Positions 1 to 61,887 are shown, counted from the stretch's first letter. The stretch: DNA of 64,000 nucleotides from a virus (IMGVR_UViG_3300036830_000184:7877-71876), one strand, 5' to 3'. Notes: generated from the sequence alone by a model not told the origin. Program-made: numbers and translations.

Positions 1-288
1 GGTGATCTGGCGGTAGCCGCCGCCATCCACCCGATCAATCGAGAGGGAGATGACCTGCGGCGAGCCGTCCGCGTAAGTAATATGCAACGTAATCAACTGC
101 CGTATTTGTTGCAGCCGCCACGACTCTGCCGCCTGCCGGTTGTCCCATTCGAGGGCCGAATAGAGTGCGGATGCCTTATGCGCCCGTGCCCATTCGAGCG
201 CTTCCCTTGGATACAAAATCTTGTCAGGCGACTGAGTTTGTAGCGCCAATAACTCTTCGCGGATCGTGTGTTGAAGCCTCGACGCCAC
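1..288 (-). CDS. Hypothetical protein downstream of the RAMP gene and array A1 (partial, runs off the window)
   Basis: Not in the ORF track because it has no stop inside the window. GTG at 288 follows AAGGGGAACAAA. My translation is VASRLQHTIREELLALQTQSPDKILYPREALEWARAHKASALYSALEWDNRQAAESWRLQQIRQLITLHITYADGSPQVISLSIDRVDGGGYRQIT, open for 96 codons. Confidence 0.75.
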   Translation of the reverse strand, partial: MASRLQHTIREELLALQTQSPDKILYPREALEWARAHKASALYSALEWDNRQAAESWRLQQIRQLITLHITYADGSPQVISLSIDRVDGGGYRQIT

Positions 289-303
289 TTTGTTCCCCTT
301 TGT

Positions 304-612
304 TGCCTGCCACGCCCCACCGAACCAGGTGATGCCCTGCCTACGTCACCCAACCTGCCATGCCATGCCGATCCGGGCCGGAAGCTGATTAGCCGCGCCA
401 AAGAAAGCGCCACCTGCCCAGCCCCCCTTACGGAGCGTAGCCGTGATGAACCATGGTTCGCCCGCGCCGCCTCGATATGCCAGGACAGTCCTCGCCTACG
501 TTGCCGTTGGGTGCCTGCCATGCCGCTCCAGGTTAGACGTTGCGACACCACGCCTGGCGTTGCCCGCCATGCCAGTATTTGCGGAGCGAGGAGACACCTC
601 GCCACGCCTGCC
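304..612 (-). repeat. Pentamer (GGY/CGY-NN) array A1, candidate guide-RNA array
   Basis: The minus strand parses as GGCA GGCGT GGCGA GGTGT CTCCT CGCTC CGCAA ATACT GGCAT | GGCG GGCAA CGCCA GGCGT GGTGT CGCAA CGTCT AACCT GGAGC GGCAT | GGCA GGCAC ... GGCCC GGATC GGCAT GGCAT | GGCA GGTTG GGTGA ... GGTTC GGTGG GGCGT | GGCA GGCAA. It starts 7 nt after the RAMP stop codon. Confidence 0.85.
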
Positions 613-619
613 AAAAGCC

Positions 620-1558
620 TCAGTATTTGAGCACCTTGAACTCGCCCCAGCCGCAGCCGGCGCTCATCTTGCTATCGGGCCGGCCCTCGCCGACGCCAAC
701 CTGCTGGCCCGCTCGTGCCAATAAGTTAACGACATCGTTCGCCGAGAACTGGTCGCCGTCCCACTTCAGGATCAGTTGCGCTTGCCAGCCATCGGCGAAC
801 ATCGGCCGGGCGCGCAGGTCAATGCCGCCGTTGGCGTTGCGGCCGGGGCGGATGTCGCAGCGCGGTTCGCCCTTGGTGATCCGGACCAGACCGGTGCCCT
901 GTTCATCGAAGCCATCGGCCATGACGAACAGCGACATTTTGGCGATTGTCATTTTGAAACCCACCGTGCGGCAAGCCGAAATCAGTGCGTTTCTGAAAGC
1001 AGACGCGGGAATGCCGTCCCAGCCTTCTATCGCTCGGTGTCTGGCGTTCTCATAGTTCTCGTCAAAGTCGCGGGCCTGGCGCGTCTTGCCCTTGCGGCTT
1101 TGGCTGCCGGCTTCCTGGGTTGCGCGGATGGTGTTCTGCACCTTCTGGCTGAACTTATGCAGCACCAAGGGGGTGGTTCCCTCGATCGTGACGCGGGCGA
1201 GCTCGAACTTCGGCGGTGAGATAGAGACGCGCGCTTGTGGCTTCGTTTTGTCGTCGGGATCGGTCAACCCAAGGTCGCGGAGATCGGACCGGATCTCGAC
1301 CGGGGGCCGGCGCTGGCCGGGGATCGGCGCTTTGACCCGCGCGATGATCTCTTGTTCATCCGGGGTAACCCGCCTCGCCGCCGGGCTACCGCGCCGCTTC
1401 GGCGGTAGATAGTCGGTATCGGGCTGCAAGGTCTCATCGACGGTGACGGCAACTACCTTCCGGGGCCGGCCGCGCTTCTTCGGCTGTTGGACCAATAGCG
1501 CGCCTTCGTCTGGGTGCTCGCCGCTTGAGTAAGAATTCCCACGTGATTTCACAGCCAT
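620..1558 (-). CDS. Stand-alone Cas7/RAMP-like protein with a disordered AT-hook N-terminal extension
   Basis: ATG at 1558 with SD AAGGGGAG (track ORF 620-1720). The C-terminal ~195 aa carry RAMP signatures: first strand ARVTIEGTTPLVLH, GIPASAFRNALISA (cf. IPGSSLKGALR), and terminal Gly-rich loop VGVGEGRP...GCGWGEFKV. The N-terminal part has KKRGRPRK. Confidence 0.8.
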   Translation of the reverse strand: MAVKSRGNSYSSGEHPDEGALLVQQPKKRGRPRKVVAVTVDETLQPDTDYLPPKRRGSPAARRVTPDEQEIIARVKAPIPGQRRPPVEIRSDLRDLGLTDPDDKTKPQARVSISPPKFELARVTIEGTTPLVLHKFSQKVQNTIRATQEAGSQSRKGKTRQARDFDENYENARHRAIEGWDGIPASAFRNALISACRTVGFKMTIAKMSLFVMADGFDEQGTGLVRITKGEPRCDIRPGRNANGGIDLRARPMFADGWQAQLILKWDGDQFSANDVVNLLARAGQQVGVGEGRPDSKMSAGCGWGEFKVLKY

Positions 1559-1672
1559 GGCCAGGTGCTCCCCTTGTTGCCATTTTTCGGTGCCAATCAA
1601 ACCAATTTTGGTTGACGAAAAATAGCAAACCATGCTCACGTTTGGGCGGTCAAGCGAATATAGAAAATAGTC

Positions 1673-1870
1673 ATGCAAATACGCAAAAGTGAGAATGTTG
1701 TTATTCGGCTGCACAAACACGAGTTGGATGTCGTTGTTTTGGCGGCGGCGAGTAAATTCCTATCGCCAACAGCGTGGGTGCGGCATCTGGTTTTGTCGGA
1801 GAGTTTCAAAGTGAAGGAGGAGCTAACGGAAAAGGCAAAACGGACTGACGGTGTCCCTTTGGCATCGTGA
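1673..1870 (+). CDS. Small ribbon-helix-helix-like DNA-binding protein
   Basis: 65 aa with RKSENVVIRL (beta strand) then two helices (ELDVVVLAAA, SPTAWVRHLVL). Divergent from the RAMP gene across an AT-rich spacer. Confidence 0.6.
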   Translation: MQIRKSENVVIRLHKHELDVVVLAAASKFLSPTAWVRHLVLSESFKVKEELTEKAKRTDGVPLAS

Positions 1871-1882
1871 AGGCCCTCCATC

Positions 1883-2558
1883 GGCATGGCAGGTAGGGAC
1901 CGGCACCGTTCGCAACGAGTGATCGGCATGGCAGGCTCGGTTCCGATTTCAACTCACGGCAGGGTTTGAGTGGGCACCGCAGGTCGGGCGCCGGAGGTTT
2001 GGCGCCGGAGGAAAGGTTCGGCGGGCTTGGGTGTCGAGGTCTGGCTTCGACGGCGCGATAGGCTTGGCGGGCTAGGCATGGCCAGGGCGACGAGGCGCGG
2101 TGACTTAGGTTTGGCGGGCGAGGCAATTCGTGGCCTGGGTCGGTCGTGCATCGATAGGTGAGGTGAGGCAGGTGAGGGCGGCGTCCAAGGTAGGGCGTGC
2201 GCGGTGAAGCAACGCAGGCGAGGGGCACCAAGGCATCGCTCGATGACGATGGCCCCCTATGGCATGGCAGGCGAGGCATGGTCACGGCGACGAGGTGCGG
2301 TGACTCGGGTCTGGCAGGCGAGGCGCACTTGGCAGCGATGGTCCGACATGACGGGGCCGGCGGGGCACAGTGGGGATCGACGGGGCAACGCACCGAGAGG
2401 CGCGGCAGGCGAGGCGGAACAAGGTCGATACTGGCTTCTATCGGCTTGACTCGGCAGGCTCCCAAGAACGCGGCGGTCGGAGACAACCGGCCCGTCATGG
2501 CAGGCTAGGATTGGCACGGCCCGGCAACGCCAAACTTGGCGAGGCGTCGGGCTTACGG
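1883..2558 (+). repeat. Pentamer (GGY-NN) array A2
   Basis: Recurrent GGCATGGCAGG / GGCAGGC / GGCGGGC anchors every ~40-60 nt with 5-nt-phased GGY-NN units between them, e.g. GGTGA GGTGA GGCA GGTGA. Overlapping ORFs are Arg/Gly/Ala-rich shadows. Confidence 0.85.
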
Positions 2559-2559
2559 T

Positions 2560-2590
2560 GGCGGGGGATCTTCGGGTCTCTCGCCTTTCC
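2560..2590 (+). terminator. Hairpin/terminator closing array A2
   Basis: GGCGGGGGATC-TTCG-GGTCTCTCGCC followed by TTTCC: an 11-bp stem including G-U pairs and a C(UUCG)G tetraloop. Confidence 0.75.
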
Positions 2591-2658
2591 TTTGTCCCCG
2601 ATGGTAATGTTGAGCCGCCGGCCAGCAGCCCGGTCCCCCAACCATCCGGGACTCTGCC

Positions 2659-13981: not shown

Positions 13982-14145
13982 AAGCAGGACTCGTAAATCC
14001 AGGGACCGAAACCGTCAATGGAAAATCCGATACTTTTATTGTGATTTGTTGGCCTCGTTGGCGGCGTTGATGATTGCCAAAGGCTCACTCTTGGGTCGCG
14101 ACGCGCGGTAACGCTGGGCCAGTCAGGCAGGCGGGGGCACTCATT

Positions 14146-14358
14146 ATGGCTGATCTATTTGCCGGCGAGCCGGTGCCGCTTGGTGAGCAAATCCGCGAAA
14201 TCGAACGTGAGCTTGAGACCCGCCGGGCGGTCTATCCGCGTTGGGTCCAGGCCGGGCGGCTATCCTTTGATGTGGCCAAACGGCGGGTGCTGATCATGGA
14301 GGCGGTTCTGGCCGAGTTGAAGGGCAGGCAGGGCGGGGCGGATCACGGGGCGGTTTGA
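14146..14358 (+). CDS. Small phage hypothetical protein embedded in array A3
   Basis: EQIREIERELETRRAVYPRWVQAGRL..RRVLIMEAVLAEL; ATG at 14146. Confidence 0.7.
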   Translation: MADLFAGEPVPLGEQIREIERELETRRAVYPRWVQAGRLSFDVAKRRVLIMEAVLAELKGRQGGADHGAV

Positions 14359-15705
14359 TCCCGGCACGGCTGCGCAGGCAGTCCAACATCCAGGCGGGAA
14401 TACCCGCCGTCACGGCTGGTTTGAGGTGGATGGCGACCCGCGGCAACGCAAGGCCAGGGGTGGCGCTGCCGGTGTGGTCTATCTGTTAGTGGCTAGGCGC
14501 GATGGGCATGGCAGGTCACGCAGGGCAGGTGTGTTCCGGATTGGTCTTCGCTTTGCAACGCCAGGCTGATCGGGGCAACGCAGGCTGCCCGAGGCGAGGT
14601 TGAGCGAGGCACCGAGCGCCAGGCAGGTAAGGTGGGCGAGGCACCGCGCTGCGCATCGAGGTAAATCCTTGCGTGGCAGGCTATTCGAGGCACGTGCGGC
14701 TACGCCATCCGAGGCGTCGCTAGGTTAAGCGAGGCGGGTTTGGTTGGTGGGGCGGGGCTTCTCTGGGTTCGCTCGGCGGGTGCGGCGAGGATATCAGGGC
14801 TGCGTTGGGTTCGCTTGGCGGGTTTGGTGAGGATGACGGGGCTGCGTTGGCGGGGTAGCGATGGCCGGCATTGCTCGGAAAGTCATCGCACCGCTTATCT
14901 GGGCGTCGCAGGCTGGGTCGCTTTAGGCGCGAAGAGCTAGGGACGGCTAGGCACGGCAGGCGTGGATAGGCGTGATTGGCTTGGCAACGGAGGCAAGGCA
15001 GGCGTGGAACGGTTGGCTCTTCGTGGTTCCGGACGTGAGGTGTTTCATTTCGCGGTGAGGCAGGCTGATCGGACCGGGGCATCGTAGGCGTGGCGGGTGA
15101 CGTTGACCGTCGCGAGTTTGGGCGACGCATGGTGAGGCCGGGCAGGTCGGGTGTCGCGACCTTGCGATGGAAAGGACTGGTTTGGCAGGTCCGGCAACGT
15201 TGGCAACGCCTCGTAGGCTAGGCAGGTTCGGTTGGTGGCGTGGGCAACGCAGCGACCGTAGGTTATGGCGGGCGAGGCAGGGTGTCGCTTCTCCTGTCCA
15301 GGCCGGAAAGGCAGGCTAGGCATGGCCGAATTTGGCCGGGCTTCACTGGGTTTGGCTGGGCCGGCAACGTTGGCGTCTCAACGCTGGGTCAGGCATGGCT
15401 CGCAGGCTAATCGGCACTTCGGTGCCCAATACCCACGAGGGATCAACCCTCGGTCACGGCAGGCACGGCCACGCGACTCCGCTTCTGGCCAGTCAAGGTG
15501 AGGCAGGCGTGGTTTGGATGGCAGCGCCACGCTCCGCAAGGAACGGCAGGCAGGGCATCGCAACGCGCTTCGGGGTAAGGATCTGGCCAGGCAGGCAATC
15601 GGCACTTCGGTGCCCAACACCCATGAGGGGATCAACCCTCAGTCACGGCAGGCAAGGCGTGGCAGGGGCGGCGACGCGTTTCGCGGCCTGAACTGGCCCG
15701 GCTAG
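14323..15705 (+). repeat. Pentamer (GGY-NN) array A3, the largest (~1.4 kb)
   Basis: More than 20 GGCAGG/GGCGGG/CGCAGG anchors at ~40-60 nt spacing with 5-nt-phased units, e.g. GGCTA GGCAC GGCA GGCGT GGATA GGCGT. No credible CDS. One more unit lies upstream at 14082-14134. Confidence 0.85.
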
Positions 15706-15714
15706 GGGCTGACA

Positions 15715-15748
15715 GGGGAGAGTCCGGGGTCCAACTCGGACCCTCCCC
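15715..15748. terminator. Hairpin between array A3 and the convergent GH5 gene
   Basis: GGGGAGAGTCCGGG-GTCCAA-CTCGGACCCTCCCC inverted repeat. Confidence 0.6.
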
Positions 15749-15802
15749 ATCCCGCCTATAATTTTGTGCGGCCTTCACCGCAGTTAACGATTGCGGCTCG
15801 GC

Positions 15803-36106: not shown

Positions 36107-36124
36107 CTGGCGAGGGGCGCGTCC

Positions 36125-36864
36125 TCGCCTAGCCAACCAAGAGCCGCCTGCGTTGCCGTTCCTGGCGAAGAGACACCAAACCAGTCCGTGCCTGCGTTGC
36201 AACGCCCGGCCTAGTTCCGCCACCCCGAGCCAGTCCACGCCTGCCAAGAGATACCTCGCCAGTCGACCCAACCTTAATCGGCCTGCCGAGCGACGCCCTG
36301 CCAATCTTACGTTGCCCTACCTGCCGAGCGGCGCCCCACCCCGCCGGGCCATTTCAACCTTGGTCTGCCTAGCCTGCCGCGCGAGCCGGACCTAGCCGAG
36401 AGTATCCGAGCCAACCTTGCCTGCCGAGCCCTAGTCAACCTAACGCGCCATCGACCCCGAACCTAACCTGCCGGGCCAAGATCCACCCATCACGCCGGGC
36501 CATCGTGGCCATCGTGGCCAAACCTGCCACCGCCGCCACTCCCCGCCACTCTCACGATACGAGTCGGGCCATCCAGGCGAAGCCTGCCCAATCATGCCGC
36601 ACCGACCCAAATGCGCGATGCTCTACGTCGCCACGCCTGCCGGGCCAGGATCTGCGGTGCCAAGCGGGTGTCACCTCACCATTCGACGCGACGCCTGCGG
36701 GACCGATCCGCGATCTGATTGGCCAGAACGATCCGCCCGCTCCCAGCCTGCCTCACCCTGATCGACGCGGCCTCGCGAAACCACCGAAACCGCCAATGCC
36801 AAACCTGCCGCGCGGTGGGCTGCGACGCCCCTGAAGCGTTGCTGATCCTGCCTTTCCATGACGC
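36125..36864 (-). repeat. Pentamer (GGY-NN) array A4
   Basis: CCTGC(C/G) anchors (GCAGG on minus) at 36147, 36191, 36240, 36282, 36320, 36373, 36420, 36467, 36523, 36583, 36636, 36694, 36747, 36804 and 36847, spaced 38-60 nt. Hairpin GGCGAGG..CCTCGCC at ~36109-36129. Confidence 0.85.
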
Positions 36865-49470: not shown

Positions 49471-49499
49471 CTCGGCTCCTGCAAGGTGGCCGGATAATC

Positions 49500-49780
49500 C
49501 TGCGCCACCTTGCCGAGTCGCACCGAGCCAGTGACTCGGAGCCTAGAGATGCTACGCGTTGCCCGCCGAGCGATGCGGCTCGTTGAGGCACGAAGCACAC
49601 CTTGCCTAGCCTGCCCTGCCTTAGCCGGCCCTGCCGGACCCACCTGGAGCCGCCGGGATGTGCCTGCCCTACCAGTCGTACGGAGCCGTGAAGTGCTCCG
49701 ATGCGCGTTACCTGCCGCGCACAGCAGTGCCGAGTGATGCGAAGGTCCGCCGACGAAGCGATCCTTGCCTGCCATGCCAT
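49500..49780 (-). repeat. Pentamer array A6 upstream of the lysozyme gene
   Basis: Minus strand: hairpin GTCCC..GGGAC, then GGCAT GGCA GGCAA GGATC..., with ~5 segments delimited by GGCAGG/GGCGGG. Confidence 0.8.
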
Positions 49781-49842
49781 TGTCCCGCCGATAGGGACGG
49801 TCTAAAGCCTATGGCCGCCCACCAATCGGGGAAAATCAATTT

Positions 49843-61439: not shown

Positions 61440-61534
61440 CGAAATTCTGATTTTCCAGGAAGCATTTTACCACCGTAAGGTCTCTGCGGCGCGGCTGCTC
61501 TCGGTTGTCTCCGCGGTTCTGGGTGTCGAGAGAA

Positions 61535-61795
61535 CGGCACGGCTGATCTCGGCAGGCTTGGCTTCCCCACGCTTATCATGGTTTCGCGTCGCAGCGCGCA
61601 CAGCCCCACGGCTCGGCAGGCACGGCGGACAGGGGCGGGGAACGCACTGTGAGGCGCGGCTTGGCAGGCAGGGCATAGTAGGGCTCGGCTTCTCTAGGCT
61701 GGACTTGGCGGGCGAAAACGTCTTAGGATCGGTTTGTTCCAGTTGAGATGTTGAGGGCGGTTGGGCGGCGGTAGGGGAGACCTTGCCGCCGTTTT
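61535..61795 (+). repeat. Pentamer array A10 with terminator
   Basis: Anchors GGCAGG at 61551, 61615 and 61663 and GGCGGG at 61707; ends in CGGCGGTAGG-GGAGA-CCTTGCCGCCG-TTTT. Confidence 0.78.
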
Positions 61796-61887
61796 CAATG
61801 CAGCCGATTGCGCGAGAGGCGTCTGAGACGGTAGGTTGTGCCGGGGCCTAGCAGCGCTCCGCACCTCGCCGGAGACGCGCTGCATCA

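Follow-up and report, generated by a model that had tools for sequence, protein, structure and literature searches.

A winged-helix-like gene linked to a Vipr-like RAMP gene and to pentamer arrays as the probable accessory gene of a VIPR system in a tailed phage

Results

Genes and features at the locus

We analyzed a 64,000-nucleotide stretch of viral DNA (hereafter, the window), which comprises bases 7877-71876 of one 71,876-base contig (IMGVR_UViG_3300036830_000184), with attention to an open reading frame (ORF) at its left end that follows a RAMP gene and a G-rich repetitive stretch on the minus strand. Positions are those of the window unless genome positions are stated. An initial annotation of the sequence had placed a GTG with a good Shine-Dalgarno sequence about 15 nucleotides (nt) after a repetitive element, "array A1", had read from it an unannotated frame of 96 or more codons, and had proposed that the RAMP gene, the array and the ORF are transcribed together and that the ORF encodes a partner subunit or effector of the system. 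It had also suggested extending the contig leftward and measuring the co-occurrence of the ORF with RAMP homologs.

The relevant published system is VIPR, which consists of a solitary RAMP protein (Vipr), usually one accessory gene (vap, in six families) and guide RNAs called vrRNAs (10.64898/2026.04.26.720920). The vrRNAs are built of alternating GGY and NN motifs in the flanking intergenic regions, and the systems are found mostly in phages and prophages (10.64898/2026.04.26.720920). The NN dinucleotides read double-stranded DNA, with one base skipped per pentamer, and competing elements are thereby silenced; the arrays of vrRNAs show internal degeneracy (10.64898/2026.04.26.720920).

The accessory ORF and its family

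The frame noticed by the initial annotation exists as described, including the peptide segments REALEWAR and SALYSALEWDNRQAAESWRLQQIRQLI: its first 96 codons occupy positions 1..288 on the minus strand, starting at the GTG at 288, and the frame is open to the left end of the window. When the contig was extended leftward, the ORF was found to continue for 317 bases beyond the window and to end at a stop codon, giving a complete protein of 201 amino acids (genome 7559-8164, minus strand). On the sense strand, 16 nt (AACAAAGGGGAACAAA) separate the last GGCAGGC of the array from the GTG, and they contain the Shine-Dalgarno-like motif AGGGGA, in good agreement with the predicted start.

A word-indexed search returned 21 relatives besides the query (E 1.5e-76 to 2.1e-17), all of them annotated as hypothetical and none with a Pfam domain. 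According to HMMER, run against 1.84 billion representatives, the family comprises 2,579 clusters at E <= 0.001, 543 at E <= 1e-10 and 16 at E <= 1e-30, where some scores of the weakest clusters may stem from the low-complexity tail. The typical member is 140-165 amino acids long, and a tail rich in Pro, Gly, Lys and Arg (residues ~145-201) is present only in the closest relatives of the ORF. In an alignment of 84 sequences, E12, W48, G91 and Y92 are invariant, and S81, L82, D85, R86, G90 and R93 are nearly so, forming the motif SLSIDR..GGGYR. Pfam gave nothing above threshold for the ORF and no family that recurred among the 84 members scanned, and the only PHROGs match was phrog_15946 (function unknown, E 1.4e-4). 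A single-protein tblastn search of 50,697 phage records gave no match at E <= 1e-3, and the family profile later picked up members in two named phages that this search had missed. The ORF is a genuine, complete gene of a large family that has no Pfam entry.

The tail of the ORF product contains KRPRGPR and KRPPGRS, which resemble a motif in the neighboring RAMP protein, KKRGRPRK, located in a disordered N-terminal extension (residues 73-80, positions 1481-1504, minus strand). We take the latter to be an AT-hook-like motif. Judging from these motifs, basic DNA-binding tails may be a gain shared by the two proteins in this clade.

The upstream gene encodes a predicted Vipr-like RAMP protein

The gene upstream of the array (620..1720, minus strand) encodes 366 amino acids if read from the GTG at 1720. 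The methionine at residue 55 of this frame is nearly invariant in close homologues, which begin there, and therefore the true start is probably the ATG at 1558, giving 312 amino acids. With this start, the gene is clear of a 65-amino-acid ORF on the opposite strand (1673..1870, plus strand), and a 114-bp, A+T-richer divergent control region lies between them. The frame has no Pfam match and matches only phrog_4652 (function unknown; E 2.9e-15, residues 174-363). Its C-terminal 200 residues have 1,777 protein relatives at E <= 0.001, and because these are mostly 215-260 amino acids long, the N-terminal 160 residues appear to be a lineage-specific, largely disordered addition.

The initial annotation had called this gene a RAMP, and the predicted fold agrees. 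A Cas7/Csm3-like domain covers residues 168-366, and a Foldseek search of the PDB with the model returned 26 matches at E <= 0.001 (best E 1.4e-4, probability 1.0 for the best rows). All of the matches listed are CRISPR RAMP backbone subunits, namely Csm3, type VII Cas7 and Cmr, with 8-18% identity to the structure-matched chains among 50 VIA-align rows. By its model, the product of the upstream gene is a Cas7-like Vipr protein.

The array between the two genes is built of pentamers

The element called array A1 (positions 289..619, minus strand; R2 in our numbering of the arrays along the genome) consists of vrRNA-like GGY-NN pentamers on the sense strand. This strand is 38% G, and its GGC triplets are spaced at 4-5, 9-10, 14-15, 19-20 and 24 nt. 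GG pairs at lags of 5, 10 and 15 nt numbered 52, compared with 28.1 +/- 4.9 (maximum 44) in 300 dinucleotide shuffles (z 4.8). Six GGC(A/G)GG(C/T) junctions divide the array into four units of 44-59 nt and one longer interval of 101 nt. The RAMP gene, the array and the ORF all lie on the minus strand, in the order given by the initial annotation, and no terminator-like site was found on that strand between the vipr-like gene and the ORF.

We also considered a CRISPR array at this position. A repeat search within R2 gave only one 30-nt pair, and this reading was ruled out by the lack of regular repeats, the 5-nt periodicity and the irregular units.

The ORF and the RAMP gene are inherited together

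We examined the neighborhoods of relatives fetched from IMG/VR with either gene. In the loci fetched with the ORF, the RAMP gene was directly upstream on the same strand in 16 of 16, and the stop and start codons of vipr and vap touched or overlapped in eight of them. Among the loci fetched with the RAMP gene, which were the best 80 of 377 confirmed stretches, 79 carried a match to the ORF family on the same strand, and the only one that did not ends 270 bp past the RAMP gene. Two metagenome scans gave a more distant sample: the first contained no close relatives for a base-by-base comparison of arrays, and the second, started from a five-sequence alignment, gave distant relatives only (<=43% identity), of which 38 of 46 had a Vipr-like neighbor, often in the order vap then vipr. 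These counts indicate that the ORF is inherited together with vipr across hundreds of phage contigs. The partnership proposed by the initial annotation is thus strongly supported as a functional one by conserved linkage. As for the effector that the annotation named as a second possibility, the winged-helix-like fold described below contains no catalytic domain that would point to enzymatic activity.

The gap between the two genes was compared in the 80 loci left after those with identical vipr DNA were removed. The order vipr then vap was found in 75 of them. The gap was at least 200 bp in 52 loci and was pentamer-periodic in 44 of these 52 (z >= 3 versus mononucleotide shuffles). Because the gaps of relatives are likewise periodic, the order RAMP, array and ORF is a common layout of the clade and not peculiar to this phage. 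Two of the eight non-periodic gaps, in loci L006 (2194-2632) and L010 (5693-5997), are built on AGC instead of GGC; they have the form AAGCAGGC, with GAAGC pentamers, so that the fixed trinucleotide differs and the junction core, GCAGGC, is kept.

The family also occurs in named phages. Cyanophage Cy-LDV1 g33 (E 1.5e-17) is a member and lies next to the RAMP gene g34, and Mycobacterium phage Donkeykong gp50 (E 2.7e-18) is a member next to the RAMP gene gp49 (loci L101 and L102, respectively). Both gene pairs are annotated as hypothetical and lie beside excisionase and immunity genes, and a strong pentamer periodicity (z 16.5) is seen in the 700 bp before the Donkeykong pair. The RAMP gene was matched in 27 Mycobacterium and 5 Gordonia phage records.

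Predicted structure of the accessory protein

AlphaFold2 with alignment input gave a model of the ORF product with a mean predicted local distance difference test (pLDDT) score of 86.1, and the score exceeded 89 in each ten-residue block through residue 140. The model has a winged-helix-like N-terminal domain (residues 1-99), a helical hairpin (101-140) and a disordered, low-confidence basic tail. Z-alpha and forkhead domains were among the best matches of the predicted winged helix, and neither Pfam nor the predicted fold revealed a catalytic or nuclease-like domain. The model suggests that the protein binds nucleic acid through the winged helix, probably by the long helix 55-69, which carries R63, and by the GGYR motif. 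A complex of Vipr residues 160-366 with ORF residues 1-145, predicted from both alignments, scored 0.00 in two runs, which were made without controls.

Pentamer arrays are dispersed over the phage genome

The same periodicity was found in seven non-coding stretches of the genome. In all of them GG at lags of 5, 10 and 15 nt was in excess (z 4.0-7.8, each above the maximum of 300 shuffles), and the coding regions of the same genome showed no such excess. Array R1 (genome 6955-7558) lies outside the window, just downstream of the ORF, and has the same strand sense as its flanking genes. A 1,422-amino-acid ORF to the left of the window (genome 2486-6754, plus strand), without a PHROG match, converges on it. 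Array R3 (1871..2658, plus strand; z 4.9) is G-rich, has 11 junction motifs and runs divergently from the RAMP gene. It ends at a terminator-like hairpin at 2560-2585 (genome 10436-10461) of 11 pairs followed by a T-rich stretch, TTTCCTTTGT, which directly precedes a tail-fibre gene. The largest array is R4 (14359..15802, plus strand), with 1444 bp and 21 junction motifs (z 6.6). The others are R5 (36107..36857, minus strand; 11 junction motifs, z 6.8), R6 (49471..49842, minus strand; 5 junction motifs, z 4.0) and R7 (61440..61887, plus strand; 4 junction motifs, z 4.3). The seven arrays total 4,738 bp, or 6.6% of the genome, and some are up to 60 kb from vipr. In 7 of 7, it is the sense strand of the flanking genes that is G-rich.

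The junction GGC(A/G)|GG(C/T), where the step is 4 nt and not 5, divides the arrays into units. We counted 67 junctions in all, with 49 inter-junction intervals of 37-66 nt, most of them 42-58 nt. The profile of the units is GGC..GGC..GG...G....G at the start and ..G....G....G....G...GGC..GGCA at the end, and the pentamer register slips mid-unit in many of them. Rfam gave no family at the gathering score in the window and the left flank and none at E <= 1 in R4, and therefore no known ribozyme separates the units. Six clean nine-pentamer guides were compared under the one-skip rule with the genome and 147 loci (1.19 Mb); they gave 0-2 matches at >=15/18, no more than guides with shuffled dinucleotide order.

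R4 contains two copies of a double-hairpin element (~15405-15470 and 15593-15658, plus strand), in which GGCAC-UUCG-GUGCC is followed by GAGGG..CCCUC. The copies differ by one compensatory change (CGAGGG/CCCUCG versus UGAGGG/CCCUCA); their folding z-scores are weak (-1.5 and -1.2) and they have no Rfam match. The element may be a processing or tail element. Directly before R4 lies a gene of 94 amino acids (14074-14358, plus strand; phrog_19667, function unknown), and locus L002 has a homologue of it (53% identity over 59 amino acids) 1.5 kb downstream of its vap gene. It is a candidate for a second array-linked gene.

The phage and its genome

The 71.9-kb contig is that of a tailed phage, with small and large terminase subunits, portal and major head protein, and with collar-domain tail fibres, RecT, RusA, an O-like replication initiator, a DNA methyltransferase and an HNH endonuclease. 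The first 100 bases of the contig occur again 158 bases short of its end, and the G+C content of the DNA is 63%. By profile search the whole genome has one vipr-like and one vap-like gene and no second RAMP gene. None of the 65 proteins compared with PHROGs is a cas gene product, and a repeat search found no regular repeat-spacer array. The 65-amino-acid ORF divergent from vipr heads the plus-strand unit carrying R3; its status as a gene is uncertain, as it has only a weak NikA-like match (E 0.099) and no tblastn match in the 16 loci fetched with the accessory ORF. Four soil-metagenome DNA runs contain 8-24% of the words sampled from the stretch.

Discussion

A probable accessory gene of a VIPR system

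We consider it very probable that the ORF is an accessory, vap-type gene of a VIPR system in this 71.9-kb tailed phage. As in the SUSP1 and P. fulva systems, Vipr protomers would polymerise on a vrRNA, one per pentamer, so that each GGY would be hidden and each NN presented, and double-stranded DNA would be read with one base skipped after every two. Reading of the target would lead to silencing of competing mobile elements, for which SUSP1 needs both vipr and vap1. The 201-amino-acid protein, probably made from the same minus-strand unit as vipr and the intervening array, would be a nucleic-acid-binding helper at the DNA target of the Vipr-vrRNA filament, and it would stabilise or extend silencing rather than cut DNA.

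Published work on other vap families is consistent with such a role. For types II, VI and VII, the vaps are predicted to bind DNA, and winged-helix-like proteins are among them (10.64898/2026.04.26.720920). SUSP1 without vap1 plaques about 10^4-fold less on a satellite lysogen, as does SUSP1 without vipr (10.64898/2026.10.15.759431), and vap1 supplied from a separate plasmid beside a plasmid-borne VIPR raised protection (10.64898/2026.04.26.720920). The accessory-gene experiments described in the available text of the VIPR preprints concern vap1 only. The ORF family has no significant similarity to SUSP1 vap1, and what is known of vap1 therefore transfers by analogy only.

Several observations weigh against placing the locus in VIPR, or against parts of the model. 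On the side of the genes, the comparison of the RAMP clade with SUSP1 gp039 by hhalign is weak (E 3e-4, 52 columns at the C-terminal G-loop, probability 40%). The ORF-family profile has no match in SUSP1, and hhalign of the ORF family with vap1 (gp038) gave a probability of 0.6%, with GGGYR over GVGYR, in a comparison whose vap1 side is thin (3 clusters on record). Eight of the 46 distant relatives lack a Vipr match; several of these have short flanks, and L132 and L147, which have room for the gene, may carry a Vipr too divergent for the profile or none. On the side of the arrays, the strict pattern of at least four YNNGG repeats has only 5 occurrences in the genome, compared with 0.94 expected and at most 3 in any shuffle, because the arrays are degenerate. 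No recurring 3' tail of the conserved kind known from type II was seen between units, and the borders of the units are putative. None of the RNA sequencing runs searched contained the words sampled from the stretch.

Alternative explanations

The protein could instead be a transcription factor for its own locus, acting on the vipr/array operon or on a phage switch gene, with no part in silencing. It is small and winged-helix-like, the Cy-LDV1 and Donkeykong pairs lie in the early or immunity region beside repressor, antirepressor and excisionase genes, and a dedicated regulator, too, would be expected to be strictly linked to vipr. However, no operator-like palindromes were seen around the locus, and a scan for sigma-70 promoters gave 0 sites. 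The plasmid experiment with SUSP1 argues in the same direction: since vap1 raised protection from a separate plasmid, a role beyond control of native transcription is suggested, although vap1 belongs to a different vap family. We therefore regard a locus regulator as improbable. We see still less room for a factor of guide-RNA biogenesis or loading, which might bind the GGCA|GGY junctions and thereby define or load vrRNAs. Such a factor would account for arrays that show neither a ribozyme nor a tail, but the ORF product has no nuclease-like domain, and in the 8 of the first 16 loci where vipr and vap abut there is no array between them. In addition, the SUSP1 ribonucleoprotein (RNP) was expressed from vrRNA1 and vipr alone (10.64898/2026.04.26.720927), and therefore type II, at least, assembles without vap.

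That the ORF is a chance frame in G+C-rich DNA or an unrelated phage gene, simply adjacent to the RAMP gene, deserves next to no credence. Long spurious frames are indeed common at 63% G+C, several of them crossing the array, and both the lack of a Pfam family and the blank single-protein tblastn search of the phage collection would fit. Nevertheless, the family is conserved with invariant residues and its structure model is confident, and the nearly universal linkage in both directions (16/16 and 79/80) has already refuted this explanation.

A further proposal goes beyond the accessory role itself, and we consider it rather unlikely. Instead of binding DNA generically, the protein would be a structure-specific reader, which would lock silencing by placing its winged helix on the Vipr filament or on the distorted triplex of the R-loop. 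It would act together with a genome-wide guide programme that differs from the published examples, in which seven arrays with ~50-65 candidate guide units, each in the local sense of transcription, would issue sets of guides with the early, middle and late transcripts.

Significance

VIPR is a newly described form of CRISPR-related, RNA-guided DNA recognition, and the role of the accessory genes is its least understood part. This kind of system is already known from the 2026 preprints. The winged-helix-like partner of this clade, the array located between vipr and vap, and the dispersal of arrays over seven sites may go beyond what the available text of these preprints, figures aside, describes. 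A winged-helix-like partner of its own, strictly linked, accompanies one very abundant Vipr clade, and since named culturable phages (Cy-LDV1, Donkeykong and relatives) carry the pair, a bench test is within reach. VIPR arrays have been recovered through their 5-nt periodicity (10.64898/2026.10.21.760802). Guide arrays may sit between vipr and vap and also far away from both, and because some lie far off, surveys limited to windows around vipr would miss them.

Comparison with known systems

The fold of the ORF product can be set beside winged-helix nucleic-acid-binding domains of the forkhead, MarR/PadR, Z-alpha and ScpB/MukE types, among which no single family stands out. Compared with these, the ORF product adds the helical hairpin and the basic tail, and it has no significant Pfam match.

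With CRISPR types III and VII the locus shares the Csm3/Cas7 fold. However, this genome has no CRISPR array, no Cas10, Cas11, Cas5 or Cas6 and no second RAMP gene, and the repeat periodicity is 5 nt, whereas in Class 1 CRISPR every sixth guide-target base pair is displaced (10.64898/2026.04.26.720927). CRISPR-Cas type III was ruled out, as there are no regular repeats, no second RAMP and no cas matches.

Among the closest known systems is VIPR, exemplified by type II of Escherichia phage SUSP1 (NC_028808). The profile of the RAMP clade has gp039 as its sole match there (E 1.2e-3, 13.9 bits), and the order of a 449-bp gap, gp039 (195 amino acids), gp038 (146 amino acids) and a 531-bp gap fits the published layout of vipr and vap1. 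In the published complex, one Vipr protomer binds each pentamer, with G1 held by H17 and D177 and G2 by R138 and W178 (10.64898/2026.04.26.720927). In our alignment with gp039, hhalign pairs R305 with R138 and E345 with D177, and both R305 and E345 are invariant in the clade. By eye, IEGTTPLVLH resembles ITGTRPFLSH, which would put H188 over H17. W178 is aligned with a glycine, and the invariant W358 sits in an insertion after it. Like the SUSP1 system, this locus is phage-borne and has a solitary small RAMP with a G-loop and with putative GG-binding His, Arg and acidic residues, a same-strand accessory gene after the RAMP gene (~140 amino acids in the SUSP1 layout), neither cas genes nor CRISPR repeats, and flanking non-coding GGY-NN pentamers on the sense strand. 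Unlike in SUSP1, arrays occur not only outside the two genes but also between them, and seven arrays are spread across the phage, compared with four vrRNAs beside the genes. The units of ~42-58 nt with a 4-nt step at GGCA|GGY and frequent phase slips also differ, as do the long basic N-terminal extension on this Vipr and the basic tail on this vap.

Type II VIPR has a conserved pseudoknot 3' tail after 9-16 YNNGG repeats and is accompanied by vap1, and neither was seen at this locus. We do not assign the locus to type II or its accessory gene to vap1, as no tail recurs and the vap is not detectably related to gp038. In staggered vrRNA arrays, successive vrRNAs share an overlap of 1 nt, so that each begins where the previous one ends (10.64898/2026.04.26.720920, fig. 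S18 legend). The 4-nt step at GGCA|GGY is the expected look of a 1-nt overlap of two pentamer registers, and by this analogy the junctions described here would correspond to the published staggered arrays. What lies in this phage is a minimal two-gene locus of vipr and vap, without cas genes or a CRISPR array, with adjacent non-coding stretches of GGY/NN pentamers, although degenerate ones. Judged by these features of its sequence, the locus belongs under VIPR, and we place it outside type II and do not class its accessory gene as vap1.
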